A stretch of 64,000 bases of DNA from the NCBI GenBank assembly GCA_000002435.2, contig CM018792.1; one strand, written 5' to 3'. Origin of the DNA: Giardia intestinalis (taxonomy: Eukaryota). Shown one piece after another: positions 4,124 to 58,300 of the stretch. How positions within the stretch are numbered: position 1 is the first letter of the stretch; each line of letters starts with the position of its first letter. A model generated the notes under the pieces. It did no database searches. It was not told where the DNA came from and saw nothing but the letters and a program-made list of their open reading frames with translations. Made by a program: the position numbers and the translations under genes.

Positions 4124-4930
4124 TTACTCATAAGAGGCCCCGCCGCCGCGCTTGGCGATCGATCTGAGGCGCAGCTCGCGGTTCTTGATGATGTCGGGGC
4201 GGATACCCTTCGTCGTCGGAATGGCCACGGCGGGCGAGTCATTGCCAATGACGAAGACATTGCAGAGGCGAGTAAGGAACTCGGTACCTTCGGTGTCCTT
4301 CATGCGGATCATAGTGTAGGAGCCCATGTGCTTGTCGATAGCCTGGATTGTTCCGATGCGTCCACAGTTGCGCCCTCCAGTGACCATCACAATCTTGCCG
4401 ATGTCAAACTTGTACCACTCGTCGATCTTCCCCGTCTTCAGATTGATCTTGATGGTGTCGTTCGTCTTGATGTCAGGGTGTGGGAAGCGGATTGTACGTG
4501 CATCGTGTGTAGAAAGATAGGGCATACCCTTGTCTCCGAGGAAGATCTTCTGGACTCGGCAGAGCTTGAATCCGGCCTCGTTGCTCTGGATGGGAACAAG
4601 GGTGAAGCGGCCCTTGACGTCGTAGAGGACGCGGAAGGTCTTATGCACCTTCGGGATCTCAAAGACGTCCATGAAGCCGACAGGGAAGGTGGGGTCTGTG
4701 CGCGGCTTGCCGTCGATCAAGACATTCTTGTCCTGGAGGATCATGCTGGTTTCAGCGTAGGTGTTAGCATAGTGGAGGCGGTTACGCAGGATGAGGATGA
4801 GTGGGATGCACTCGCGGAGGCCATGGGGGCCGTTTGTAGGTCTGGGGGCCCAGATGCCTCCCATCTTGTCTAGAAGCCAGTGCTTCGGTGCGTTGAGGCG
4901 CTTAAGGTGCTTGCGGACTCCACGGGCCAT
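4124..4930 (-). CDS. RPS4: 40S ribosomal protein S4 (eS4)
   Basis: 268-aa protein MARGVRKHLKRLNAPKHWLLDKMGGIWAPRP...KFDIGKIVMVTGGRNCGRIGTI is a canonical eS4 sequence. True ATG (cat at 4928-4930). AT-rich promoter block follows at 4931-5045. Confidence 0.95.
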   Translation of the reverse strand: MARGVRKHLKRLNAPKHWLLDKMGGIWAPRPTNGPHGLRECIPLILILRNRLHYANTYAETSMILQDKNVLIDGKPRTDPTFPVGFMDVFEIPKVHKTFRVLYDVKGRFTLVPIQSNEAGFKLCRVQKIFLGDKGMPYLSTHDARTIRFPHPDIKTNDTIKINLKTGKIDEWYKFDIGKIVMVTGGRNCGRIGTIQAIDKHMGSYTMIRMKDTEGTEFLTRLCNVFVIGNDSPAVAIPTTKGIRPDIIKNRELRLRSIAKRGGGASYE

Positions 4931-8133: not shown

Positions 8134-9480
8134 TCACTCCTCTATACAACAAACGACGCTAACATGGGGAATTCCGTTGAACTCCGTTGCTGCTGCATAA
8201 GTATAGGCTCCAAATGCGTCTGTGATCACCCAGTCCCCGACGTCCAAGAGGGGGAGCTTGCGCTCCTTCAGAATGCAATCCAGAGAATCGCATGTTGGAC
8301 CAAAGATGCTAGACGTATTTAGGCTAGACCCTGCATGAGCCCCGGAGAGCTCCTTGCGATTGCCATGCTTATCTGTAAAACGCAGATGCGGGACAACATG
8401 GTCGAATAGAATGGCGTTGTAATATCCGTACACACCATCCCCGACATAGTACTTGACCTCATTAATGGACGCCTTACCTGATTCCATAATCTCCTTCTCA
8501 GTGAGGCAGCTGTTGTCTTCGATTTTGTCAAAGATGATGCGCCTGCCATATATTCGCGTTCCCAGGGTCATGATATCCCCTGCAAAGAATCTCCCCGGCT
8601 CCGCCATAATCTCTAGGTCCTCAGATTTGTTAGTAAAGTAAACCTTGATCCTGTTTATCTCCTCCCTGAGGGCAGAGGCTATCTCTTCGAAGCTAGGAGG
8701 AGTTATGTGTGCATGTCTGTTTGGCTCATCGTAATGACGCTCTGCGCCCTTGGACATGTACCCACCACCTATGTTCAAGACTGTGAGGGTGAAGCCCTGC
8801 TCCTTGGCAAACTTTGCTGCCTCTCCCATATATTGGACGGCTAAGCGGAAGGAGTCAACAGAGCCGCACCCTGAGCCAACGTGAAAGCTGAAACCAACTA
8901 AGTTTGCTCCCAGGTGCTTACAAAGCCTGATCAAGCGATAGCACTCACTGGGAGAAGCCCCAAATTTCACGCCAAAGCGACAAATGGAGGAGGACTCATC
9001 GGGAGGGAGAAGCCTGAGCACAAAGCGGCCTACCTTTCCAGGAGGGGTACTCTCAAGCATACTTAGCAGTTCATGTTCGGAATCGAACGTGAAGGTATTG
9101 CAATTAAGGCGAAACGCTTCTTCAATGGATCGCTTGGGTTTCTGCGGGTTTGCATATATTATCTTCGAGGGAGGGCAGCCGGCAGACAGAGCAGCGCGCA
9201 CCTCAGCGGGAGAGGCACAGTCAAACCCTGCTCCAAGAAGGTGCAGGGAGCGTAGGAGTAACGGGTGCATGTTGCACTTGACGGCATAACGGACCTGAAC
9301 CTCGGGAAGATGCGTTTTCCAGATGTTGTAGTGCCTCTCTATTTCGGAGACGTTGAGGACGCAGACGGCCTCCCTTCCGCTCTTTGCGTAAGCATCGACT
9401 ATCACCTTCGAAATATCCGCACCCTTTCCGATAGGGAGAAGGTTGTACTCGACAAGGGACGCTCTTGTCAGCACGGACAT
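8134..9480 (-). CDS. ODC: Ornithine decarboxylase (group IV PLP-dependent decarboxylase)
   Basis: FYAVKCN PLP-lysine motif (RYAVKCNMHP), glycine-rich loop LNIGGGYMSKG and the ODC signature GPTCDSLDC. 448 aa. True ATG at 9478-9480. Confidence 0.9.
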   Translation of the reverse strand: MSVLTRASLVEYNLLPIGKGADISKVIVDAYAKSGREAVCVLNVSEIERHYNIWKTHLPEVQVRYAVKCNMHPLLLRSLHLLGAGFDCASPAEVRAALSAGCPPSKIIYANPQKPKRSIEEAFRLNCNTFTFDSEHELLSMLESTPPGKVGRFVLRLLPPDESSSICRFGVKFGASPSECYRLIRLCKHLGANLVGFSFHVGSGCGSVDSFRLAVQYMGEAAKFAKEQGFTLTVLNIGGGYMSKGAERHYDEPNRHAHITPPSFEEIASALREEINRIKVYFTNKSEDLEIMAEPGRFFAGDIMTLGTRIYGRRIIFDKIEDNSCLTEKEIMESGKASINEVKYYVGDGVYGYYNAILFDHVVPHLRFTDKHGNRKELSGAHAGSSLNTSSIFGPTCDSLDCILKERKLPLLDVGDWVITDAFGAYTYAAATEFNGIPHVSVVCCIEE

Positions 9481-10605: not shown

Positions 10606-12366
10606 CTATAGTTTATCAAATGCGTCCTGTGCAGTCCACGCAAAGTCCTTGAAATTCTTATCCTCTTGCATCGTGACGCTATCGGTCTGTGTGGAAGGAG
10701 GCAGAATAGGAGACTCAGAGGTGAACTTAGCATCAAAGTTGACGACAAGCGCTTCCGGGGCTATGTAGCGATATATATTGTCTAGAGGATTCTTCAGTAG
10801 CTTCCCGTCCACCGCAAGGATACACGACTGCTCAAGTTTGGGCTTAAACGGAGGTTGGATCTCTTTCCTGTATAGCTTATCGAAATCAATCTTATTCTTT
10901 CGGAAGACCTCGTGCTTCTTGATTTCATCGAAGTTTGGCCTATCCTTGGGACGCCTGCTTAAGCATTTAGCTATAAAGCTCTTACACTCTGCACTGATGA
11001 AGACCGGGAACACGATGATATTCTTAAGGATGCGTCTATATAGTTCAGAGCGGGCGTTGCCTCCGTGGGTACTCGTCGAACTGGCGTAGGAGAACGGTGC
11101 AGACCCAACAAGCATCTCAAAGAGCAGGGCGCCCAAGGCCCAGATATCTACCATTTTGCCATGCGGTACGCCAGAGATAATCTCCCCAGAGAGGTAGTCA
11201 GGGGTGCCGCAGAAGCTTCCCGAGCAGACCCCTGCGCCCCCAGAATTGTCAGCTGAAATGCCAGTCTTGGAAAGACCGAAGTCAGTGAGCAAGATGTTCC
11301 CATGGTTATCTAAAAGGAGGTTCTCCGGCTTCATGTCCCTGAAGACGATATCGTGCTTGTGCAAGTACTCGATCACGAGAACTATCTGAGCCAGGTAGAA
11401 GACAGCAAGGGGTTCTGGAAATCTCCCTATTTTCTTCAGGTGATAGAAGAGCTCTCCACCAGTTGCAAACGTTGTCACGAGAAACAGGCGCGTTCGCGTT
11501 TGGAAGGAGTGATAGAGCTTGATCATGTTCGGGTGGTTGAAGCTCTGCAGAATGTTGTGCTCGGCCTTGAGGTGCTCGAGCTGTCGGCGATCCAGAACAT
11601 TGCGCTTCTTAAGCACCTTCATGGCGAAGAAGCGGTTGTCCTCAACGCGACGAACCAGAAAGACCTTACCGAACGAACCCTTGCCTACGACAGAGACAAG
11701 CTCAAAGTTCTGAGGCCTCATCACCTTGGCATGCGAGGGAGGAACCTGCGGAAAGATGGGGGGCCGCACGAATTTATAGGCGGCAACAGGGTTGCAGAAA
11801 GTTTCAAGGACTTCTGTCTCTGGAAGGGTTTCTATCTGGTGCGCCAGAACACGTGTGTCCTCAACGTACTCTATATTCTCGTCCAGGTCATCCTCCAGTA
11901 TCGTAGTGCGAGGTCTATCCTTCTGACCTGAAGAAGCAGGTGCATCTGCCGCCTGAGAAACAGCTCCAGTAGCCCCAATGTCTCCGTCTTCATCCGATGA
12001 GACATTAACATGACCCTTCTTGTAGCCCTTACCTTTGTCTGTTTGGAGGCCATAAGCACCGATCTTGTCATCAACAAAGACCTCGCCAAGATTTAGTCTT
12101 TGAAATGCAGAGACTATCGAGGAGACCTGGTCGGCAGACTCGACATCGAAGCGGTAGGTCTGCAAAAAGGAGATCACAAAGGCCTTCGGCTCCTTTGTTG
12201 AGCGGTGGATTCCATATATCTCCTGAACGGGTCTTTCCCACTGAATGGAGTTACCCATCACATTCTGCACGGACTTCGATGTCAACACCAGTGAGCGAGG
12301 TTGCTTTTTCCCGCGGCTAGATGTTTTGGTGACAGCATATTTGATACGCACGTCTGTGTCGCTCAT
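10606..12366 (-). CDS. AGC-family Ser/Thr protein kinase, PKB/Akt-like, with an N-terminal PH-like region
   Basis: GKGSFGKVFLV glycine loop, AMKVLKK, FRDMKPENLLLD catalytic loop, DFGLSK, TFCGTPDYLSGE activation segment, and a C-terminal AGC tail. The first ~100 aa resemble a PH domain. Minus-strand AGTAAAT poly(A) signal ~25 nt past the stop (plus coords 10575-10581). Confidence 0.85.
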   Translation of the reverse strand: MSDTDVRIKYAVTKTSSRGKKQPRSLVLTSKSVQNVMGNSIQWERPVQEIYGIHRSTKEPKAFVISFLQTYRFDVESADQVSSIVSAFQRLNLGEVFVDDKIGAYGLQTDKGKGYKKGHVNVSSDEDGDIGATGAVSQAADAPASSGQKDRPRTTILEDDLDENIEYVEDTRVLAHQIETLPETEVLETFCNPVAAYKFVRPPIFPQVPPSHAKVMRPQNFELVSVVGKGSFGKVFLVRRVEDNRFFAMKVLKKRNVLDRRQLEHLKAEHNILQSFNHPNMIKLYHSFQTRTRLFLVTTFATGGELFYHLKKIGRFPEPLAVFYLAQIVLVIEYLHKHDIVFRDMKPENLLLDNHGNILLTDFGLSKTGISADNSGGAGVCSGSFCGTPDYLSGEIISGVPHGKMVDIWALGALLFEMLVGSAPFSYASSTSTHGGNARSELYRRILKNIIVFPVFISAECKSFIAKCLSRRPKDRPNFDEIKKHEVFRKNKIDFDKLYRKEIQPPFKPKLEQSCILAVDGKLLKNPLDNIYRYIAPEALVVNFDAKFTSESPILPPSTQTDSVTMQEDKNFKDFAWTAQDAFDKL

Positions 12367-39341: not shown

Positions 39342-39561
39342 GTACTTAGGTAGCAAACGCTGTGAGTGGTGTAGGGACTTCATAGGGTGCTGGCAGTGGG
39401 ATGCGCACTAGAGTTGAGGGTGGAATCGTGCGAACCAGCTATTTAATCTAGCATCGTTATCACCATTGTTAGAAAACAGGGCACTCGGTGCTATCTTAGA
39501 TAAAAGCCAGACATAGGCAGTTCTAGGGGCGATCGAAGTAGTGAGAGCTTTAAAATTTAAA

Positions 39562-39855
39562 ATGACGAGACCAACTCTGGAATTGCACATTAAGCTCGGT
39601 ATGACCATCTTTGACACCACGTTCAACAGATGTAAAGTGGCCCATGCAAAGGACGTCATAGTGCAAGCCCATTTAGACGATAAAATTAAGACTCTCCGAG
39701 AGCGCGCGCTTTCTAGTCTGTCTGTCTCCGTCACTCACGGTGATCTTCATTTTCAAGGATGTCCCCTTGATCCTCAGCAAACTGTAGCAGAGGCAAGATT
39801 GTCTAACGGGGATAGGCTCTACCTTTTTTACTCGGTTCCACGAGGATTGGAATGA
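39562..39855 (+). CDS. Small ubiquitin-fold (beta-grasp) protein, 97 aa. The C-terminus ...SVPRG-LE is reminiscent of Ufm1 (...RDRVG-SC).
   Basis: ATG at 39562 preceded by taaaatttaaaATG. The ORF-track start at 39541 is GTG. MTRPTLELHIKLGMTIF...LSVSVTHGDLHFQGCPLDPQQTVAEARLSNGDRLYLFYSVPRGLE parallels the Ufm1 C-terminal half [32 protein letters not shown] and ubiquitin ([20 protein letters not shown]). Confidence 0.4.
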   Translation: MTRPTLELHIKLGMTIFDTTFNRCKVAHAKDVIVQAHLDDKIKTLRERALSSLSVSVTHGDLHFQGCPLDPQQTVAEARLSNGDRLYLFYSVPRGLE

Positions 39856-39878
39856 AGTTAATTCTTTGCCACATCTTT

Positions 39879-40361
39879 TCAACGTTGTAGATAGGTTCTC
39901 ATTAGCACAAGGAAGTCATTATTGGTTGATTCCCTTACTAGCCATCTAGTGTTAAATTCAGCAGCAAGAGCGGTCTCCTCCTCGGCCTTCAGGCCCAGGC
40001 GCGCGGCGGCCCGGTTGGCGAAGTAGACGGCGCGCTGGTCTGGGGGCTCGTTGTTCGCGGCCGAGACCTCGATCGCCTGGGTGAAGAGCCGGATCGCCTC
40101 CTGGAAGTCCTCCGCCTTGAAGGCGGCGTTGCCCTGCGCCTTGAGCTCGCTGGAGCTTGTGCTGGAGACCGCCGGCGCCTTCGCCCCGCTCAGGATCTGC
40201 TCCAGGTCGCCGTTGCCGTGCCTGACGTCCTTGAGTCCGAAGCAGTCCCGGAGGCAATCGATGGCGACGTCCAGGTTGTCGGTGTCCTCAACGGCTTGCG
40301 CAGCCCTGAGGTAGAGGAGGTACTCGACGACGAGCCTCTTGGCGGCCAGCCTTGTCGTCAT
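39879..40361 (-). pseudogene. Truncated duplicate of the SGT (small glutamine-rich TPR protein) gene: the first 137 codons are identical to the intact copy at 53757, then 23 unrelated codons and a stop at the repeat boundary
   Basis: MTTRLAAKRLVVEYLLYLRAAQAVEDTDNLDVAIDCLRDCFGL...EETALAA is identical to the right-arm gene. It diverges exactly at the inverted-repeat edge (39961) into EFNTRWLVRESTNNDFLVLMRTYLQR*. Confidence 0.65.
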
Positions 40362-43300
40362 CTATTTTTAAGCAGTCGTTCACTCCCTCTCAAAGTACTC
40401 TCGCTGGTCCATGATCACAGAAACCACCGCGTTCATGTCGCGCCCGAGCCTGACATATGCCTCCCTCACCCGGTTGTAGTTCAGGTCGCCACCACAGATC
40501 CCGATGATCGTGGCGATGTTGTCCTCGTCGTCCGCGGTCAGCGGAGGGGGCTGCTCTGCAGGCTGCGGCGGCGCCCTTTCCCTTGGAATAAGGATCCCTC
40601 TCCCGGCCATCCCTGCCTCGATCATGTTCAGGTAGAGGTGGAGCACCTCAAGGAGCAAGTCGCGATCCTCGTTGAATCTCAGCACCAGATTGGGGCTCCA
40701 GTCGGATATCTGGGTTGTAAACATCTCCAAGAAGTTCGGTGTCTGGAGTATCTGCTCTAGCTCCTCGGTGCTGTACATGTGTGGTCTGTGGCTGTGTCTG
40801 GCCGCGCCCATGTGCCGGAGGGTGTCCTCGAGATCCTCTTCTGTCGGATCTTCGGCGATGATGGCAGCTGCCAGATCCATGTTGTTATTAGCCAGCTCGA
40901 GCGATATCTGCGCCAGCCGTGGCCTACAGGAAAAGGTCTCTACTAGCTGTGCGACGAGGTCCGAGTTGTTGCTAACTGGGTCTAGTTCTAAGGCATCTGA
41001 ATTGGATCCGGACGAGGAGTCTTGCACCTCAGCATGAGGATCTCGCGAAGCAGCCGATTCAATTTGCCGGGCCTGCGCGACCCCTGCGGCAGAACTGCTG
41101 GGAGGCGCTTCAAGGATCCTTCCGCGAGGTTTAGCCTGAGTGAATACTACGGTATCCTGAGTGATATTTGGAACCTTCGACAGTAGAATACCGTCATCAT
41201 TCAAGATAGATGCGTTGAGAATGAGACGGATGGTGGGCGCCTCTGCGGAGATGGCCTCAGCAACCTTCTTCCGCAGATCGCCGACGGTGCTATCTGGAAA
41301 AAACTCGAATGTCCTTGGCTCGAATTCCTTCACTGTGGACCTAACCGCGATCCTGATGCAATCAGACATTTTTTGTTTGCATAGACTAATAATTCACTTT
41401 ATCTCAGAGGGTGCGGTCACGGTTATCTCACCGGAGTAACAATCCGTTGTGCTCTGTGAGTGCCGATTGCTCTGCGGAACCATTTCCAGCGCCCTGACAA
41501 ATGAACGGTTAGAGCGTAGGGCCTTGTTAGCATACTGTGTATCCTCGCCTGCCACAAACTCTAACCCTAAGAAGTCGGCCATTTCGACATTGTTTGCTGA
41601 TGTTTCATGCCTAGACGCGAGGTGCGGCGCCTTCGACTGCGCTCGGCTCTTAGGCTTGAAAGCATTTGCTGCATGTAAATCCCCAAGCTGCCTTTCCTCT
41701 CTTCCGCAGGCGGCAGTGTTTTTCCGAGCAGGTAAAGAAACATCGCCAACTGATTGATGCCTTGCTGACAACTCAAGTTTGTTCTGAGACATATTGCCTT
41801 GAAGCTTACTCCCGTTATTAGGTAGGATGTTTCCCCCTTGAGACCTATTAGAAGTTAGTGAATTCTTGACTGTCGGGACGATTTCTTCTTGAGTTGAGCA
41901 GGAAACTACATCCCTCGCCGAAGCAGAAAGGTGACCTTGCTTGAGTGAGGCACCAAGCTCGCCTGCAATAGAGCTGCCACTCAGACGTGTACACGCAAGA
42001 TTAGCTGAGCTATCGTTTTGACAGATGATGATAGAATGGCTCTCCCCTTCTGTGTGAGGAAACTCAACAATGGTGTCCCGGCCGGAAAAGGAAACCCGGT
42101 CCTTTGTGGAAGTCGCTGGTTGCCCTTTAGCTCGTTTCTCGACCGCTTCAACACCTGCACTGGCCATGTTCTGCTTGCTAGTGTACCTGCTCTCCGAAAA
42201 TAACTCACCAGAGGTAACATTAGCATCATCCTCACTCATCGATGAAGTGGAATGCTGAGTCTCGACCTGCGATAGCCTGACATGTCGGCTTTCAAGGCAG
42301 TCAGCCGTAACAACTGTGTGGCCAAGCTTACTCAGGTGCTTCCCGTCGAAGTCGACGCTTTTGTTTTGCCGTAAGATGGACTGAAAGTTGGAATTGCGTA
42401 GTATGGAAGAGTTAGACAGCGCATGTCGCACACTCTGCTGAGATGAAGGATTGTCCGCGTCACATGTCCTTGGCGTCTTTGCACTAACTCTGAATTCATT
42501 GGTAGTCGTGGCACTATTTTGTGATAGAGATGTTCTGCTCAGCGAGTAGGGATCTTTGCTTTCCTGCCCCAGCGGAAGCGTGACCAGGCTTATGTTGCTA
42601 TCGCTGGAGGGTGTCTGTGGGAGGAGAGGGGCCGGACGCAGACGCTGAAAATCTGTTGAATGAGGTGCTCTGTCGCTATAGACTGGTGGTGAAGCTACTG
42701 AATCCCCTGTCAGAGGGAGAGTTGGCGGTATATAAATGGGGGTTATAGAAGTGTTTTGCCTGTCGTTCCTCATGTTGCTAAGCGGAACGTGCTTCGGTAT
42801 CTGAGTATCCTTGTAAATCGTAGAATCTTCTGTCAGGTGGCTTTCATTCTTTACATCCAAGTCAATCACTGTGGTCGAGGAAGCATGCGCCGAATGGACA
42901 TCGCCGGGGTCTTCCGACGAGGAATCCGAATAGTAATAGTAAGACTCTTCGTCGCTCTCCATTGAGTTGTAGTCCAGTTGACTGTGGTCACTGTCCTTCT
43001 TCTTGCTAACTGGTTCCTGTTTTTGCGCAGCAGGAAGTGTTGCCCTGGACTGAGTAGACGACGTAGTAATGGGCATTATGTCGGGCATTTTTCCGGTGAT
43101 GATAGGGAAAACCCGGGTAGCTTTTGGCCGAGTAGACTCTGACTTGGCAGAGTTTGTTACAGGGAAGGGCAAGCTTGCTATCTGCGTGATTAGGGGGAGC
43201 TGAGTATATGGCACCTTTTTCAACGGCAATGACACTGATGTTGCATTTTGCAGGGTCGTCAGTCGGTTTGGAGACACAATGACGGGCGCGGGCTGTACAT

Positions 43301-44089
43301 CTGGGCATAACGGAATTGATCGTTTTGTCGAGATCGACTCTGATGTATTTAGTGGAAACTTTACAGACTGTTCCTGCAAACAAGAAGGGTCTTGAGCATT
43401 AGTTGTTCGACGCGCAGAGCTCACGTGCATCCTATACCGACGATCCTTACTTGATGTAATTCGGGGCGCCCCCTGTAATTGGTACGGAGGAACAAGTTTT
43501 GGTACGGAAGTTCGGAACGGGATAGCCGAGCTTATCTCACTAGCTTCGTCTTGCTTAGTTCGTCCAAGAGTGAAGCAAATATTCCCAAAGTTTTCCGGAA
43601 ATTTCGTTGAAGGAATGACAATAGAGAGTGGAGGCGGGCGGAAGCTGGAAGAGTCACTAACAGTGCAATCGCTAGTAACCCTACTAAGAGAGAAGTTTGC
43701 TGGGCGAGCCGGCTCATTCGGCATGTGGAGGGATATACTTGAGCCCATAGAGACGCCAGCGGCTTCAGGAATGGGCAAGCCACCAAGCTGATTCTGAGAA
43801 GCACCGAGCCCCACCTCCCTCTCGGATCCGTTAGACTTAGACTGTCTTTCTATTTCCCGAGAAGACTTCTCGTTACACACAGCACTACAGGAGGCTACTT
43901 TTACCTCTGCAAGGTCTGGCCTAAACGAGTCGGCACTTTTCACCTCTTCCACGTTGTTTAGGGCTGTTGCGTGACCTGCGCATGTCTCTTGGCGGCCTTC
44001 AAAGGACGACGTTTTGCTAGTCACCTCCTTACACTCTTCAAGAGACGGCGGCGCGTCCGAGTCCAGCGCGGAAATCTGTCCGCTGCGCC
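39961..44089. repeat. Left arm of a 4129-bp inverted duplication, the reverse complement of 50029-54157. Apparently 100% identical.
   Basis: Every ORF translation in this span, on either strand, recurs identically in mirrored order in the right arm. Direct reverse-complement comparison at both ends and at 41361-41440 versus 52681-52760 shows identity. The boundaries were located by the first mismatches. Confidence 0.9.
40380..41369 (-). CDS. RAD23-like protein (N-terminal ubiquitin-like domain, internal and C-terminal UBA-like domains), copy A
   Basis: The Ubl fold at residues 1-80 is IRIAVRSTVKEFEPRTFEFFPDSTVGDLRKKVAEAI...TVVFTQAKP. The UBA-like segments are RLAQISLELANNNMDLAAAIIAED and NIATIIGICGGDLNYNRVREAYVRLGRDMNAVVSVIMD. 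329 aa. AT-rich initiator. Identical to the copy at 52749. Confidence 0.55.
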   Translation of the reverse strand: MSDCIRIAVRSTVKEFEPRTFEFFPDSTVGDLRKKVAEAISAEAPTIRLILNASILNDDGILLSKVPNITQDTVVFTQAKPRGRILEAPPSSSAAGVAQARQIESAASRDPHAEVQDSSSGSNSDALELDPVSNNSDLVAQLVETFSCRPRLAQISLELANNNMDLAAAIIAEDPTEEDLEDTLRHMGAARHSHRPHMYSTEELEQILQTPNFLEMFTTQISDWSPNLVLRFNEDRDLLLEVLHLYLNMIEAGMAGRGILIPRERAPPQPAEQPPPLTADDEDNIATIIGICGGDLNYNRVREAYVRLGRDMNAVVSVIMDQREYFERE

Positions 44090-50028: not shown

Positions 50029-52724
50029 GGCGCAGCGGACAGATTTCCGCGCTGGACTCGGACGCGCCGCCGTCTCTTGAAGAGTGTAAGGAGGTGACTA
50101 GCAAAACGTCGTCCTTTGAAGGCCGCCAAGAGACATGCGCAGGTCACGCAACAGCCCTAAACAACGTGGAAGAGGTGAAAAGTGCCGACTCGTTTAGGCC
50201 AGACCTTGCAGAGGTAAAAGTAGCCTCCTGTAGTGCTGTGTGTAACGAGAAGTCTTCTCGGGAAATAGAAAGACAGTCTAAGTCTAACGGATCCGAGAGG
50301 GAGGTGGGGCTCGGTGCTTCTCAGAATCAGCTTGGTGGCTTGCCCATTCCTGAAGCCGCTGGCGTCTCTATGGGCTCAAGTATATCCCTCCACATGCCGA
50401 ATGAGCCGGCTCGCCCAGCAAACTTCTCTCTTAGTAGGGTTACTAGCGATTGCACTGTTAGTGACTCTTCCAGCTTCCGCCCGCCTCCACTCTCTATTGT
50501 CATTCCTTCAACGAAATTTCCGGAAAACTTTGGGAATATTTGCTTCACTCTTGGACGAACTAAGCAAGACGAAGCTAGTGAGATAAGCTCGGCTATCCCG
50601 TTCCGAACTTCCGTACCAAAACTTGTTCCTCCGTACCAATTACAGGGGGCGCCCCGAATTACATCAAGTAAGGATCGTCGGTATAGGATGCACGTGAGCT
50701 CTGCGCGTCGAACAACTAATGCTCAAGACCCTTCTTGTTTGCAGGAACAGTCTGTAAAGTTTCCACTAAATACATCAGAGTCGATCTCGACAAAACGATC
50801 AATTCCGTTATGCCCAGATGTACAGCCCGCGCCCGTCATTGTGTCTCCAAACCGACTGACGACCCTGCAAAATGCAACATCAGTGTCATTGCCGTTGAAA
50901 AAGGTGCCATATACTCAGCTCCCCCTAATCACGCAGATAGCAAGCTTGCCCTTCCCTGTAACAAACTCTGCCAAGTCAGAGTCTACTCGGCCAAAAGCTA
51001 CCCGGGTTTTCCCTATCATCACCGGAAAAATGCCCGACATAATGCCCATTACTACGTCGTCTACTCAGTCCAGGGCAACACTTCCTGCTGCGCAAAAACA
51101 GGAACCAGTTAGCAAGAAGAAGGACAGTGACCACAGTCAACTGGACTACAACTCAATGGAGAGCGACGAAGAGTCTTACTATTACTATTCGGATTCCTCG
51201 TCGGAAGACCCCGGCGATGTCCATTCGGCGCATGCTTCCTCGACCACAGTGATTGACTTGGATGTAAAGAATGAAAGCCACCTGACAGAAGATTCTACGA
51301 TTTACAAGGATACTCAGATACCGAAGCACGTTCCGCTTAGCAACATGAGGAACGACAGGCAAAACACTTCTATAACCCCCATTTATATACCGCCAACTCT
51401 CCCTCTGACAGGGGATTCAGTAGCTTCACCACCAGTCTATAGCGACAGAGCACCTCATTCAACAGATTTTCAGCGTCTGCGTCCGGCCCCTCTCCTCCCA
51501 CAGACACCCTCCAGCGATAGCAACATAAGCCTGGTCACGCTTCCGCTGGGGCAGGAAAGCAAAGATCCCTACTCGCTGAGCAGAACATCTCTATCACAAA
51601 ATAGTGCCACGACTACCAATGAATTCAGAGTTAGTGCAAAGACGCCAAGGACATGTGACGCGGACAATCCTTCATCTCAGCAGAGTGTGCGACATGCGCT
51701 GTCTAACTCTTCCATACTACGCAATTCCAACTTTCAGTCCATCTTACGGCAAAACAAAAGCGTCGACTTCGACGGGAAGCACCTGAGTAAGCTTGGCCAC
51801 ACAGTTGTTACGGCTGACTGCCTTGAAAGCCGACATGTCAGGCTATCGCAGGTCGAGACTCAGCATTCCACTTCATCGATGAGTGAGGATGATGCTAATG
51901 TTACCTCTGGTGAGTTATTTTCGGAGAGCAGGTACACTAGCAAGCAGAACATGGCCAGTGCAGGTGTTGAAGCGGTCGAGAAACGAGCTAAAGGGCAACC
52001 AGCGACTTCCACAAAGGACCGGGTTTCCTTTTCCGGCCGGGACACCATTGTTGAGTTTCCTCACACAGAAGGGGAGAGCCATTCTATCATCATCTGTCAA
52101 AACGATAGCTCAGCTAATCTTGCGTGTACACGTCTGAGTGGCAGCTCTATTGCAGGCGAGCTTGGTGCCTCACTCAAGCAAGGTCACCTTTCTGCTTCGG
52201 CGAGGGATGTAGTTTCCTGCTCAACTCAAGAAGAAATCGTCCCGACAGTCAAGAATTCACTAACTTCTAATAGGTCTCAAGGGGGAAACATCCTACCTAA
52301 TAACGGGAGTAAGCTTCAAGGCAATATGTCTCAGAACAAACTTGAGTTGTCAGCAAGGCATCAATCAGTTGGCGATGTTTCTTTACCTGCTCGGAAAAAC
52401 ACTGCCGCCTGCGGAAGAGAGGAAAGGCAGCTTGGGGATTTACATGCAGCAAATGCTTTCAAGCCTAAGAGCCGAGCGCAGTCGAAGGCGCCGCACCTCG
52501 CGTCTAGGCATGAAACATCAGCAAACAATGTCGAAATGGCCGACTTCTTAGGGTTAGAGTTTGTGGCAGGCGAGGATACACAGTATGCTAACAAGGCCCT
52601 ACGCTCTAACCGTTCATTTGTCAGGGCGCTGGAAATGGTTCCGCAGAGCAATCGGCACTCACAGAGCACAACGGATTGTTACTCCGGTGAGATAACCGTG
52701 ACCGCACCCTCTGAGATAAAGTGA
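50029..52724 (+). pseudogene. Duplicated 3' fragment (last ~887 codons) of the MAST/Greatwall-like kinase gene without its own ATG. The ORF-track start at 50094 is GTG. It lies in frame with, and 11 codons downstream of, the LRR gene's TAG.
   Basis: The translation is identical to the C-terminal 876 aa of the 2670-aa protein. The upstream in-frame sequence diverges at 50029. The first in-frame ATG is ~95 codons in. No AT-rich initiator. Confidence 0.6.
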
Positions 52725-52748
52725 ATTATTAGTCTATGCAAACAAAAA

Positions 52749-53738
52749 ATGTCTGATTGCATCAGGATCGCGGTTAGGTCCACAGTGAAGGAATTCGAGC
52801 CAAGGACATTCGAGTTTTTTCCAGATAGCACCGTCGGCGATCTGCGGAAGAAGGTTGCTGAGGCCATCTCCGCAGAGGCGCCCACCATCCGTCTCATTCT
52901 CAACGCATCTATCTTGAATGATGACGGTATTCTACTGTCGAAGGTTCCAAATATCACTCAGGATACCGTAGTATTCACTCAGGCTAAACCTCGCGGAAGG
53001 ATCCTTGAAGCGCCTCCCAGCAGTTCTGCCGCAGGGGTCGCGCAGGCCCGGCAAATTGAATCGGCTGCTTCGCGAGATCCTCATGCTGAGGTGCAAGACT
53101 CCTCGTCCGGATCCAATTCAGATGCCTTAGAACTAGACCCAGTTAGCAACAACTCGGACCTCGTCGCACAGCTAGTAGAGACCTTTTCCTGTAGGCCACG
53201 GCTGGCGCAGATATCGCTCGAGCTGGCTAATAACAACATGGATCTGGCAGCTGCCATCATCGCCGAAGATCCGACAGAAGAGGATCTCGAGGACACCCTC
53301 CGGCACATGGGCGCGGCCAGACACAGCCACAGACCACACATGTACAGCACCGAGGAGCTAGAGCAGATACTCCAGACACCGAACTTCTTGGAGATGTTTA
53401 CAACCCAGATATCCGACTGGAGCCCCAATCTGGTGCTGAGATTCAACGAGGATCGCGACTTGCTCCTTGAGGTGCTCCACCTCTACCTGAACATGATCGA
53501 GGCAGGGATGGCCGGGAGAGGGATCCTTATTCCAAGGGAAAGGGCGCCGCCGCAGCCTGCAGAGCAGCCCCCTCCGCTGACCGCGGACGACGAGGACAAC
53601 ATCGCCACGATCATCGGGATCTGTGGTGGCGACCTGAACTACAACCGGGTGAGGGAGGCATATGTCAGGCTCGGGCGCGACATGAACGCGGTGGTTTCTG
53701 TGATCATGGACCAGCGAGAGTACTTTGAGAGGGAGTGA
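52749..53738 (+). CDS. RAD23-like Ubl/UBA protein, copy B (identical to 40380-41369)
   Basis: 329-aa translation identical to copy A. ATG at 52749 preceded by aacaaaaaATG. Confidence 0.55.
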   Translation: MSDCIRIAVRSTVKEFEPRTFEFFPDSTVGDLRKKVAEAISAEAPTIRLILNASILNDDGILLSKVPNITQDTVVFTQAKPRGRILEAPPSSSAAGVAQARQIESAASRDPHAEVQDSSSGSNSDALELDPVSNNSDLVAQLVETFSCRPRLAQISLELANNNMDLAAAIIAEDPTEEDLEDTLRHMGAARHSHRPHMYSTEELEQILQTPNFLEMFTTQISDWSPNLVLRFNEDRDLLLEVLHLYLNMIEAGMAGRGILIPRERAPPQPAEQPPPLTADDEDNIATIIGICGGDLNYNRVREAYVRLGRDMNAVVSVIMDQREYFERE

Positions 53739-53756
53739 ACGACTGCTTAAAAATAG

Positions 53757-54638
53757 ATGACGACAAGGCTGGCCGCCAAGAGGCTCGTCGTCGAGTACCT
53801 CCTCTACCTCAGGGCTGCGCAAGCCGTTGAGGACACCGACAACCTGGACGTCGCCATCGATTGCCTCCGGGACTGCTTCGGACTCAAGGACGTCAGGCAC
53901 GGCAACGGCGACCTGGAGCAGATCCTGAGCGGGGCGAAGGCGCCGGCGGTCTCCAGCACAAGCTCCAGCGAGCTCAAGGCGCAGGGCAACGCCGCCTTCA
54001 AGGCGGAGGACTTCCAGGAGGCGATCCGGCTCTTCACCCAGGCGATCGAGGTCTCGGCCGCGAACAACGAGCCCCCAGACCAGCGCGCCGTCTACTTCGC
54101 CAACCGGGCCGCCGCGCGCCTGGGCCTGAAGGCCGAGGAGGAGACCGCTCTTGCTGCCAAGGACTGCGAGGAGAGTGTGCGCCTTTGTCCAAGCTACCAC
54201 AAGGCGTGGTTCCGCCTCGGGAATATCCGTGAGAGTGCTGGTAATAAGCCTGAGGCGTACAGGGCGTACAGCCAGGCCCTGACGGCAGACCCTAGCAATC
54301 CGAAGTATCGCGAAGCCCGTGATCGTGTCAGCGAGGGCCGTCCTGAACAAGCCACCCCTGACCTCTCAGCACTTGCCAATAACCCTCTCTTTTCGCAGCT
54401 TCGGGATGATCCTGAAATTATCGCCTTGATGCAAAACCCCAAGGTGGCTGACCTTTTATCTAAAGTTAACTCGAATCCAATGGCCATTATGGGCGCCATG
54501 TCAGACCCGGAACTAGCCCCTATTTTCCAGCGCCTCGTCCAAAAGCTTGGGCCACAGCTTTCTAGCATGCTCGGTGGACTTGGTGGACTTTTCGGAGGAG
54601 GCGGAGCGAACTCTCCACCCTCGGGTATGTACTCGTGA
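53757..54638 (+). CDS. SGT: SGT homolog (small glutamine-rich TPR-containing protein; Sgt2/SGTA-like co-chaperone). This is the intact copy.
   Basis: The N-terminal dimerisation motif LDVAIDCLRDCFGL corresponds to SGTA LEVAIQCLETAFGV. Three TPRs follow (AEDFQEAIRLFTQAIE..., AVYFANRAAARLGL..., KAWFRLGNIRESAG...). The C-terminus has Met/Gln-rich STI1-like segments (MQNPKVADLLSKVNSNPMAIMGAMSDPELAPIFQ). aaaaatagATG initiator. Confidence 0.8.
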   Translation: MTTRLAAKRLVVEYLLYLRAAQAVEDTDNLDVAIDCLRDCFGLKDVRHGNGDLEQILSGAKAPAVSSTSSSELKAQGNAAFKAEDFQEAIRLFTQAIEVSAANNEPPDQRAVYFANRAAARLGLKAEEETALAAKDCEESVRLCPSYHKAWFRLGNIRESAGNKPEAYRAYSQALTADPSNPKYREARDRVSEGRPEQATPDLSALANNPLFSQLRDDPEIIALMQNPKVADLLSKVNSNPMAIMGAMSDPELAPIFQRLVQKLGPQLSSMLGGLGGLFGGGGANSPPSGMYS

Positions 54639-55042: not shown

Positions 55043-55297
55043 TTACTTCTGCTCCGCCGCACGGGCCTGTCTTGCCTTGGGGGTGTAGAGAAGAAGGTCA
55101 TCAATCAGGTCAACATGCGTGAGGAGCATACGCCGACAGCAATAGCGAGTAAGGCCGAGTTCATCCAGCGCCCGCTTAGCAGGAGTCTCTGAGCTTCCAC
55201 TTTCTTCTGCTCCGTATTCTCCTAAAAGCTTAAGGTATTTCTCGTATAGACTTCCAATGACCTTCCCGCAGGTGAAGCACCGAACAGGGATGATCAT
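55043..55297 (-). CDS. RPB10: DNA-directed RNA polymerases I/II/III subunit RPABC5 (RPB10). The start is the internal Met at 55297, not the ORF-track start at 55411.
   Basis: [25 protein letters not shown]...[20 protein letters not shown] matches RPB10 ([18 protein letters not shown]...[20 protein letters not shown]) including the CX2C...CC zinc motif. caccaaaaaataATG initiator. Confidence 0.85.
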
Positions 55298-55316
55298 TAT
55301 TTTTTGGTGCATAGGA

Positions 55317-58300
55317 ATGGCCCTCCCTGACACAGCTCCCTTGACTCTCTCTAGGCAGGTTGCCAGCCGCCTGAGCCATGTATACGGCGGGGATATCCGT
55401 GCTCGATGCATAGAGCATACCCTTCACCAGAACTGCATAAGGATCTGTGAAATGGCGCTCAATCTACGCAAGGACTTTCAACGAGAGCGACAATCGGACC
55501 CACCTCTGCCTGAATTCTACGCAGCTGCCATCAATAACATAGAGCCAATTGCTTATTACTATATGCTCCCTTGTAATATTTTACCGTGCCTCCCTGTTTC
55601 TAGCATTAAGAAGCGCTTTCTCTTCAGGACCCTTTTCGATATCCATCACTTTCCCGGACTCTATCATGTGACGGAGCTTCTTGAGACAGGCGTTTTTGAT
55701 GACTATTCAGAGGACGAGCACGATGAGCTGAACAAGAACTTCGGGCGGAGCATCCCAAATACTAATGGCCCTGCAATGCCACGTGCAAAGAAACGCTTGA
55801 GTACCCATGTCCTCCATGAAATCGCAGATATACGTTTGAAGGGCGTGGGAACTATGTCGGCCAACGGAGGACCCAAATGCACTGGCCAATTCGACAAGTT
55901 AGCTCAGGTACGAGCAAAAGATCATCTTATGAAGCAACTCAATACGATTGCTGTAACCACGGCGATGATTGAAGACGTTGACCGCACTGAGGGTTCTTCC
56001 GGCAACACTGCTTGTGATTCTAAAATACCAAGCACACTTAAGGACTCAGCCGAGGACACTCCCCTTCTCACAATAGACCATAAGCAGGAGTCAATTCGCC
56101 TCCTTGAGAACATGCTTCCATGCAGCGTGTTTGACTCTGTCGCTCAATTCATTCGAAGAAAGGATTTCACACCTCCCCTGACACGTGAAAAGTGGGTTGA
56201 TTATTCAACGAACTTCTTGAAAAAACGTTCGTGGGGAGAGATACGAACCATATCCTATGAGCAGGCCTTTTTGATATGCAACATTCTTGAGGTTGATGCG
56301 TCTCCAGACTTTCCCGATTTATCCATACTTACCAAACTGATCTGCGAAGAGCTAACGGAGAAAGGTATCGAAGTCATTCCCGAGTACGAACCGATTTTTC
56401 ATGAGATTGTCCGGGTAAAATTGCAGAATATCCTCCAAGATAATTCTGCACGCGTGATCACTGTTCTAGACACATTCACTCCTGATGATCTACAAAGCCT
56501 AATGATTGTGACCAAGGGGCACCGAAACATCACGGAGCAGCTTTCTACATCAGGAGCTAAGTTACTATTCTCCAGATGGCAAAGGCTTACAACAACCGAC
56601 TACATTATACGGTCTTCTGAGCCCACGCCTGAATCCATCCTTTATTCCCTCACAGAAACTAATTCTCTCGGAGTTTCTCGGAAAAGGGAAAAAGACGTCG
56701 CCGAAAACACTATGCTGGTAGCCATGCAACACTTTATTGAGGGTGTGTTACCTGATTGTCACCAGCTGATAAAAGACGCTATTTGTGACTTTTTGGATGC
56801 GAATACTACAAATAGCTGCTTTGTAGCCGATATCCTAGAGAATTTGACAAACAGGACTAAGGCCACAGAAAACCACAGCCAGATCACTCTTTCAGAATTG
56901 TCTCTTCCATCGTTAGACATCCTCGGCAAGGAGTATCACTTTAGCTCTAATGTTAGCGCTCAGCCAACTACTTGTCTTCTGGAAGAGAATAAGATAGCAA
57001 TTTCTGAAATGTTAACTATGCTTGGTAAGAAGGTCTGGATGCATAGAGTTTGCGATATGTATGCTCTCGTCACTAAGCTAGCTCCCTTCCTTCACCGCAC
57101 AGAAACGTCTGGAATCAGGGTAGTGCCACTTTCGTTGACATCTTATTTTGTCGATTATTTGAGTGCGCGTGCAAGCTACCTTGTATCCACAGAGGATGTT
57201 GTGAAGAAGGACCCTCTTTGTCGTTTCACAGACGGATGGACTAAATACGCACAACAGTCGTGCAATAACCTTTGGTATTGTCCGTTTCCCATTGATGATA
57301 GAATTGTTTCTCACTATACGCAACTCTTTCATACCATAATCGCATTTGCGATCACGCTTACTATCACTGAGCCACGAGTAGCTCCCAGAGAACTTGCTTA
57401 CGAACTTGGATATGTCGCCTTATTTGGCCTGGAACGATCTTCTGTGACTGCTCATGTTGTCACTGGCTGTAAGTATCTTTATGCTACAGCCGTCAACTGT
57501 TTGAACCACACCGCTGGAAACATCATATCAGACTACTTTCAACTGCCAAACATGACGTTTGTATCCGGATACTTAGCTAGAAGATGTTTATTATACATGC
57601 AATACTACTCAGCAGCAAAGAAGGACAAGATGTCCTCTAAGTCTGATAACCCTCTATCAGAGTCTAAATATGATGAGCATATAACTAAGTTTGGATCTCA
57701 ACTAGCACCCGACAGATCCCACTCGGTGCAAGAGCACTCTACGAGTCAAACGGAAACCAAGTGTCTAGTTTTTGCAAGAGGAAGGAAAGGTCCTTTGGGT
57801 GATCGTCTCTTTTCTGAGAGGAACATAATCCGTGATACTTCCACTCCAGGTAGAAGCTTTACGGTAAATGCCAGAGGATCTAAGTATGGATCCAAAACTC
57901 AACTGGCGCGACAGAAGATGTCGCTCCCTCCTAAGTCTTTGCGATGTGATTATTCAAATCGGTCTATATCTTCGCGGAAGAGTACTTGTCATTTCACACT
58001 AGCACCCAAGCAAGAATTAGATTCCGCGACTCCGTTTTCAACTACAATCAAGACACGACAGACTACTCAAGCAAATGAGAAGTCGTCATGTGATACTGGT
58101 GTGCACTCTTATGAGGATGAAGAGCACCTACTGATAGCGGGCTGTGTTCCAGATTTAGCGCTTTATAATGAGATTTACGAAGACTTTTCGCTGACAGACT
58201 TTCAGACGCGCAGTCTGTTTTCGTCCAAACCTGTCTCTGCTCGGCTCTGTCTCCAGATGCTTCTTATGTCTTCGTGCCTAAACGGCTCGCTCAATGTCGT

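Follow-up and report, generated by a model that had tools for sequence, protein, structure and literature searches.

Positions 39,562 to 39,855 of a 64,000-nucleotide (nt) stretch of Giardia intestinalis DNA (contig CM018792.1 of assembly GCA_000002435.2; hereafter the window) hold a small gene, GL50803_107659, that encodes a 97-residue protein of the ubiquitin family (Table 1). The open reading frame (ORF) runs from an ATG at 39562 through 97 codons to a TGA at 39853-39855, and its translation is the sequence quoted in the original prediction, which had called the gene unannotated-looking and its product a Ufm1-like, ubiquitin-fold protein. The first of these labels was mistaken: the identical protein is already held by NCBI and UniProt as a hypothetical protein of G. 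intestinalis strain WB (GL50803_00107659, equivalent to XP_001707227.1, KAE8303466.1, and UniProt A8BF99). We found no occurrence of the identifier GL50803_107659 in the searchable literature.

The start site was read correctly. A longer version of the frame begins at a GTG (39541) and would encode 104 amino acids (aa); the annotation of strain DHA2 includes a version of that length. The ATG at 39562 is directly preceded by a 13-nt run of pure A/T, the AT-rich leader of the original prediction, and four of four orthologous loci (contigs L001-L004) share this start codon together with an A/T-rich leader of the AAATTAAAA type, while the remaining upstream region was only 36-38% identical. Based on general knowledge of Giardia promoters, this run is likely a Giardia-type AT-rich initiator with a putative promoter function; its position directly at the ATG would imply a very short 5' untranslated region. 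We take the locus to be a genuine small Giardia gene that is probably transcribed on its own.

Orthologues of the protein were sought in two collections: 5.8 billion protein clusters were searched by word index, both with the sequence and with a profile, and 1.84 billion representatives were searched exhaustively with an HMMER profile. The word-indexed sequence search returned three relatives, each of 97 aa and with 99, 81, and 79% identity, and the exhaustive search added a single full-length protein of 96 aa and 60% identity (P0007); all remote matches of the latter search were proteins composed of ubiquitin-like repeats. Neither the profile query of the 5.8 billion clusters nor a scan of JGI metagenome contigs yielded further relatives, and the window contains no second copy or paralogue. 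The four orthologous clusters in the searched data all come from Giardia-like assemblies, and the family is so far restricted to Giardia-like organisms. Together with the WB protein, these orthologues form the five-sequence set used below, with the corresponding DNA taken from contigs L001-L004.

GL50803_107659 is real and under purifying selection. Start, stop, and length (96-97 aa) were conserved across the five sequences, down to 60% identity. Among G. intestinalis-like copies, pairwise ratios of nonsynonymous to synonymous substitution rates (dN/dS) were 0.07-0.11 at dS values of 0.8-1.3, and differences were concentrated at third codon positions (for example, 16/4/40 and 17/8/37 for positions 1/2/3). 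Identity was 79% in the coding sequence and 36-52% in the flanks (200 nt upstream, 105 nt downstream). Two antisense ORFs that overlie the gene (39408..39734 and 39673..39882) were not kept open in the orthologues.

As judged from its sequence, the protein is a highly divergent single-domain member of the ubiquitin family proper, of the PF00240 type, with ubiquitin, NEDD8, and the ubiquitin-like (Ubl) domain of Rad23 as its closest families. First, a Pfam search with the WB protein alone matched PF00240 (E 5.5e-4, 20.1 bits) and then Rad60-SLD, DUF2604, and YukD, all of which are beta-grasp families. When the five orthologues were searched, PF00240, Rad60-SLD, and DUF2604 were matched by all of them (best E for PF00240, 7.7e-6), and the matches ranking after PF00240 came only from beta-grasp families (Rad60-SLD, DUF2604, TUG-UBL1, YukD, and TmoB); the Urm1, ThiS, Atg8, and Atg12 models gave no match to any of the five at E <= 10. 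Second, a search of PDB sequences with the family profile placed ubiquitin and polyubiquitin at the top (E about 0.02-0.2 for mono-ubiquitin), with residues 28-95 of the query in register with residues 9-76 of ubiquitin. Third, hhalign, in which the family alignment was compared with single, manually entered sequences, ranked ubiquitin highest, with a probability of 79% and an E value of 1.6e-5 over 67 columns (residues 26-92 against ubiquitin residues 7-73), followed by NEDD8 (52%), the Rad23 Ubl (41%), and the UBL4A Ubl (17%). Probabilities were low for SUMO1 (2%), UBL5 (1.5%), GABARAP (0.6%), Atg12 (0.4%), and FUBI (0.4%) and lowest for Elongin B (0.2%), Urm1 (0.1%), and Get5 (0.1%); Hub1/UBL5, Urm1, Atg12, Atg8, Elongin B, FUBI, and Get5 were rejected as assignments at values of 1.5% or less each. 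The beta-grasp call of the original prediction is supported at the sequence level by PF00240 in five of five orthologues and by the top rank of ubiquitin in hhalign, and its fallback, a divergent Ubl-domain protein, is the reading that the profile evidence favours. Although its gene was annotated before, the protein had not been listed in this well-known family and is a new member of it.

Direct comparison with ubiquitin and NEDD8 shows both the kinship and the distance. The core of the query starts M-T-I-F where ubiquitin starts M-Q-I-F, the spacing from the last strand to the tail is equal, and a glycine in the column of ubiquitin Gly76 precedes a short extension, an arrangement known from the precursors of these modifiers. 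By contrast, identity with ubiquitin is only 16% (11 of 68 ungapped positions), and the query has a 13-residue N-terminal extension, a 6-residue insertion in the beta1-beta2 hairpin (seen as a gap in HMMER alignments), arginine in place of Gly75, proline in place of Arg74, and no lysine in the columns of Lys48 or Lys63; the restriction of the family to Giardia further separates it from both ubiquitin and NEDD8. Like Hub1/UBL5, which is reported missing from Giardia, the query is a small Ubl that stands alone and has aromatic residues at the end of its last strand (L-Y-L-F-Y-S in the query and L-E-L-Y-Y in Hub1/UBL5). Unlike Hub1/UBL5, with which hhalign aligned only 25 N-terminal columns, the query is 24 residues longer, and its tail runs on to P-R-G-[LW]-E; the C-terminal di-tyrosine without glycine that is characteristic of Hub1/UBL5 is absent from the query, which ends in FYSVPRGLE.

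Conservation is much higher at the two ends of the protein than in its middle. Between the WB protein and the 60%-identical orthologue, identity was 79% for residues 1-14 (11 of 14), 42% for residues 15-59, 60% for residues 60-79, and 89% for residues 80-97, the best-conserved segment, where 16 of 18 residues were identical. The N-terminal extension (residues 1-13, M-T-R-P-T-L-E-L-H-I-K-L-G) precedes Met14-T-I-F, which aligns with Met1 of ubiquitin. At the other end, the tail follows the pattern S91-[VIL]-P93-R94-G95-[LW]-E97. Gly95 (39844-39846) is invariant and falls in the Gly76 column of ubiquitin in the phmmer, hmmsearch, and hhalign registers, with the equally invariant Arg94 and Pro93 in the Gly75 and Arg74 columns, so that there is no di-glycine. 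Pro93, Arg94, Gly95, and Glu97 were retained despite synonymous changes in their codons (CCA/CCG, CGA/CGC, GGA/GGC, and GAA/GAG). In the core, the columns of Leu8, Ile44, His68, and Val70, which form the familiar patch of ubiquitin, hold Ala27, His63, Tyr87, and Phe89 in the query, all invariant, whereas the Lys48 column varies among Cys, Arg, His, and Asn and the Lys63 column holds Asn across the orthologues. The constrained parts (the termini, the third and fourth strands, and the tail) would share one face of the ubiquitin fold. AlphaFold2 models, built from only 4-5 sequences, reached pLDDT values of 56.2 and 60.6; the second of these low-confidence models shows the order of elements expected of a beta-grasp (beta-beta-alpha-beta-beta-(alpha)-beta) without forming a compact fold, and in the low-confidence modelling the N-terminal extension lies within a long first strand.

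Two further features of the sequence deserve mention. Four of the five histidines (His9, His28, His59, and His63) are invariant, including those of an H-G-D-L-H motif, and could form a pH-sensitive or metal-dependent surface; His63 occupies the Ile44 column. Separately, residues 8-17 (39583-39612), L-H-I-K-L-G followed by M-T-I-F, resemble the polyubiquitin junction L-R-L-R-G-G followed by M-Q-I-F, and HMMER aligns them in this way. We rejected a relic of such a junction, as this N-terminal match adds only 1.8 bits, a gain that 45 of 1000 shuffled N-terminal tails and 36 of 1000 random ones also reached.

The gene stands beside a rearranged region. A perfect (100% identical) inverted repeat with arms of 4129 nt and a spacer of 5939 nt begins 105 nt past its stop codon. 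The outer edge of the repeat truncates a copy of an SGT-type co-chaperone gene, leaving a 160-aa ORF with an SGTA-dimer-like N-terminus and one TPR, and the full gene at the other arm encodes a 293-aa protein with SGTA_dimer, TPR, and STI1 DP domains, whose architecture best matches yeast Sgt2. The repeat also carries the 3' end of a 2670-aa ORF, which, like the SGT-type gene, is present as one full and one truncated copy, and a 329-aa protein is duplicated whole. The N-terminal Ubl of this 329-aa protein is weakly Rad23-like (PF00240 E 0.0017; PDB Rad23 Ubl E 0.0035) and unrelated at the sequence level to GL50803_107659; by eye, the protein also has UBA-like helical segments, and its gene lies 18 nt upstream of the SGT-type gene. 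As the small gene, the SGT-type gene, and the gene for the 329-aa Ubl protein adjoin, three ubiquitin-like or proteostasis genes are clustered here. The other window ORFs that we scanned included no ubiquitin-pathway enzymes.

Comparison of the orthologous loci gives this arrangement some age. At the most divergent locus, L001, the small gene converges on an intact SGT 3' end, with 65 nt between the two stop codons. The L002-L004 contigs have the same junction with the SGT interior as WB, and all of them end just inside the repeat. Adjacency with SGT is therefore the ancestral state, and the truncated copy arose before these lineages separated. That such an old rearrangement has identical arms in WB suggests gene conversion or an assembly artefact. 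After its N-domain and TPR, the truncated copy continues for 25 unrelated codons; the L002 frame stops earlier and has another tail, so that this part is not conserved.

Upstream of the gene, a GC-rich block (60-70% GC) contains a 250-aa ORF with ankyrin repeats and a C3HC4 RING and, in another frame, a 96-aa ORF that corresponds only to the C-terminal end of a variant-specific surface protein (VSP; cysteine motifs, a transmembrane helix, and CRGKA; Pfam VSP E 1.8e-22), which suggests a mini-VSP or a fragment of a VSP gene. Recognizable housekeeping genes elsewhere in the window are listed in Table 1; several window ORFs of 200-600 aa gave no Pfam match.

Table 1. Features of the GL50803_107659 locus and of the surrounding window (positions are those of the window unless a contig is named).
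Feature	Position	Strand	Basis or remark
Complete coding sequence of ubiquitin-family protein GL50803_107659	39562..39855	+	97 codons + TGA; ORF, translation, exact database match, orthologues, dN/dS
A/T stretch, 13 nt, tttaaaatttaaa	39549..39561	+	Read from sequence; likely Giardia-type AT-rich initiator
N-terminal extension MTRPTLELHIKLG, codons 1-13	39562..39600	+	HMMER and hhalign registers
Ubiquitin-like core, codons 14-91	39601..39834	+	PF00240 spans residues 26-89; hhalign 26-92 against ubiquitin 7-73
C-terminal tail V-P-R-G-L-E, codons 92-97	39835..39852	+	Alignment register
Junction: small-gene stop, about 105 nt, then SGT interior	39856-40015; L002 1088-1236; L003 911-1049; L004 893-1044		
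Corresponding region with intact SGT 3' end	L001 652-944		
Truncated SGT ORF, 160 aa	39879..40361	-	
Full SGT-type co-chaperone, 293 aa	53757..54638		
Inverted repeat arms	39961-44089 and 50029-54157		
329-aa protein, first copy	40380..41369	-	
329-aa protein, second copy	52749..53738	+	
Ankyrin + C3HC4 RING ORF, 250 aa	38222..38974	+	
VSP C-terminal end, 96 aa	39051..39341	+	
Ribosomal protein S4e	4124..4930	-	
Ornithine/arginine decarboxylase-type enzyme	8134..9480	-	
Protein kinase	10606..12366	-	
RNA polymerase subunit N (RPB10)	55043..55411	-	

How might such a protein act? The best overall explanation, to which we assign a probability of roughly one half, is that GL50803_107659 encodes a divergent Giardia ubiquitin-family protein that is not Ufm1 and likely serves as a stand-alone interaction module. 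Non-covalent partner binding seems the most likely mode, with a chance that we place just short of even. We infer the whole of this mode of action. The conserved sheet face and the C-terminal tail would dock non-covalently onto a partner, probably a dedicated one rather than the canonical ubiquitin receptors, and the N-terminal domain of the adjoining SGT co-chaperone would be a candidate. Four considerations favour a non-covalent mode: the tail lacks a di-glycine, the residues after Gly95 are conserved, the Ile44 patch is replaced, and the E1 enzymes of Giardia are largely accounted for, as four of the five E1-type proteins in a published inventory are assigned to Ub, SUMO, NEDD8, and URM1 and a MoeB-like one is left over (PMC7029713).

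Several observations weigh against this explanation. The WB protein alone scores under the Pfam gathering threshold of PF00240 (20.1 versus 25.4 bits). A glycine in the Gly76 column, followed by two residues and set in the best-conserved segment of the protein, has the look of a processed modifier, and such a tail is not expected in a purely non-covalent Ubl. With regard to the candidate partner, gene adjacency counts for little in a eukaryote, and the Ubls known to bind SGT are little similar to the query (17% for UBL4A and 0.1% for Get5). The non-conjugated, partner-binding Ubls as a group offer a mixed comparison. The query resembles those of Rad23 and, less so, UBL4A in the hhalign panel, and its gene adjoins that of a co-chaperone whose family binds the UBL4A and Get5 Ubls; unlike any of them, however, it stands alone, with no UBA, TUGS, or dimerisation domain, and carries a conserved glycine-containing C-terminal tail.

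In the main alternative reading, the protein would be the precursor of a Giardia-specific modifier: a protease would remove the final [LW]E, and an E1-like enzyme would adenylate Gly95 before its transfer to target proteins. We rate this reading as less likely than not, yet only a little below non-covalent binding. Its appeal lies in the exact placement of Gly95 in the Gly76 column at the ubiquitin-like distance from the last strand, in a C-terminus two residues past this glycine, as in Ufm1 (VG-SC) and other precursors, and in the conservation of the tail and last strand, with Pro93, Arg94, and Gly95 maintained through synonymous changes. The chemistry of the tail speaks against it, since a bulky arginine occupies the Gly75 column and a proline the Arg74 column, and we know of no PF00240-family modifier that ends otherwise than in Gly-Gly. 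The residues that a protease would discard are themselves conserved (Glu97 invariant, residue 96 Leu or Trp), a weak objection when only five sequences are compared, and neither the Lys48 nor the Lys63 column offers a conserved lysine. A C-terminus that reads Arg-Gly instead of Gly-Gly would call for a non-canonical E1, and the leftover MoeB-like enzyme, GL50803_11436, could be an example, as no MoaD/ThiS partner has been identified for it (PMC7029713). The full proposal, a conjugated, Giardia-restricted modifier with an Arg-Gly end unprecedented in the ubiquitin family proper and a non-canonical E1 such as GL50803_11436, is less likely than not.

A specific form of the non-covalent model is less probable still. 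SGTA and Sgt2 bind the Ubl domains of UBL4A and Get5 through their N-domains. This precedent and the conserved gene adjacency are what make the SGT N-domain a candidate partner, and the query might be the functional counterpart of the Get5/UBL4A Ubl, binding the N-terminal dimerisation domain of SGT and feeding tail-anchored or hydrophobic clients into a GET/TRC or quality-control pathway. The convergent arrangement at L001, the 105-nt distance to a truncated copy that retains the SGTA-dimer-like N-terminus, the presence of a full Sgt2-like gene in the same window, and the reported existence of a GET pathway in Giardia are all consistent with this role. Nevertheless, we consider it improbable. 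Gene neighbourhood predicts little in eukaryotes; the UBL4A and Get5 Ubls both score below ubiquitin itself, with no similarity to yeast Get5; the residue in the Ile44 column is histidine and not hydrophobic; and the query ends six residues past its last strand, with no additional C-terminal domain for partner binding or dimerisation of the Get5/UBL4A kind.

The reading preferred in the original prediction fares far worse. In this reading, the protein would be the Giardia orthologue of Ufm1, cleaved after Gly95 and conjugated via Uba5, Ufc1, and Ufl1. The alignment behind this proposal is reproducible: the last 28 residues align with human Ufm1 without gaps (7 of 28 identities, BLOSUM62 score 17), and hhalign recovered the same register (64-88 against 52-76). 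Both are small stand-alone proteins, and the predicted fold of the query is a beta-grasp like that of Ufm1. The glycine two residues before the end was also described correctly (G95-L-E in WB, and Gly95 followed by L-E or W-E in five of five orthologues), and a single glycine rather than Gly-Gly at the putative conjugation site, followed by a short, putatively removable extension, is the Ufm1 type of C-terminus. The alignment is not specific to Ufm1, however. Over the same C-terminal stretch, ubiquitin gave 5 of 27 identities and a BLOSUM62 score of 20, and over the whole length the Ufm1 register scored -19 versus +35 for the ubiquitin register; because ubiquitin equals the resemblance there and far exceeds it overall, the resemblance reflects a generic beta-grasp pattern. 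The N-terminal half of the query does not align with Ufm1, and there is no similarity at the profile level: PF03671 matched none of the five orthologues at E <= 10, hhalign gave human Ufm1 a probability of 0.4% (E 0.16, 25 columns), and the HMMER score was -1.0 bit versus 14.6 bits for ubiquitin. Ufm1 orthology was rejected on the Pfam, hhalign, and HMMER results, with which the ungapped scores agree.

The published inventory points the same way. This survey, based on hidden Markov models, lists Ub, Ub-L40, Ub-S27, SUMO, NEDD8/RUB1, URM1, and a Ufm1-domain protein encoded by another gene, GL50803_104982, whose predicted structure is atypical (PMC7029713). Profiles for Uba5, UFC1, the Ufm1 ligase, and peptidase C78 were among its queries, and the Ufm1 conjugation enzymes UBA5, UFC1, and UFL1 were not found (PMC7029713). 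A review lists "UFM1 +" for Giardia on the basis of this inventory (PMC7600729). On sequence grounds, the Ufm1 reading of GL50803_107659 is effectively refuted. Finally, a functionless ORF, whether a chance one or a relic in decay (such as that of a polyubiquitin repeat), would fit the junction-like residues 8-17 and the rearranged, duplicated surroundings but is very unlikely given the low dN/dS, the conserved length, start, and stop in five sequences, the far greater divergence of the flanks, and the slight and easily matched score of the junction.

The published catalogue of the reduced ubiquitin toolkit of Giardia comprises Ub, SUMO, NEDD8, URM1, and a Ufm1-domain protein of doubtful standing, and it does not mention GL50803_107659 (PMC7029713). 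Correcting the Ufm1 lead means that GL50803_107659 gives no ground for seeking a Ufm1 pathway in this organism. Without conjugation, the protein would be a further divergent Ubl adaptor, perhaps linked to the SGT/GET chaperone system, and its interest would be modest. Were it conjugated, Giardia, a minimal eukaryote, would possess a fifth protein-modification pathway, specific to the parasite and missed by the published inventory. With its glycine in the conjugation position, this conserved, lineage-restricted ubiquitin-family protein lends itself to inexpensive and well-defined experiments.

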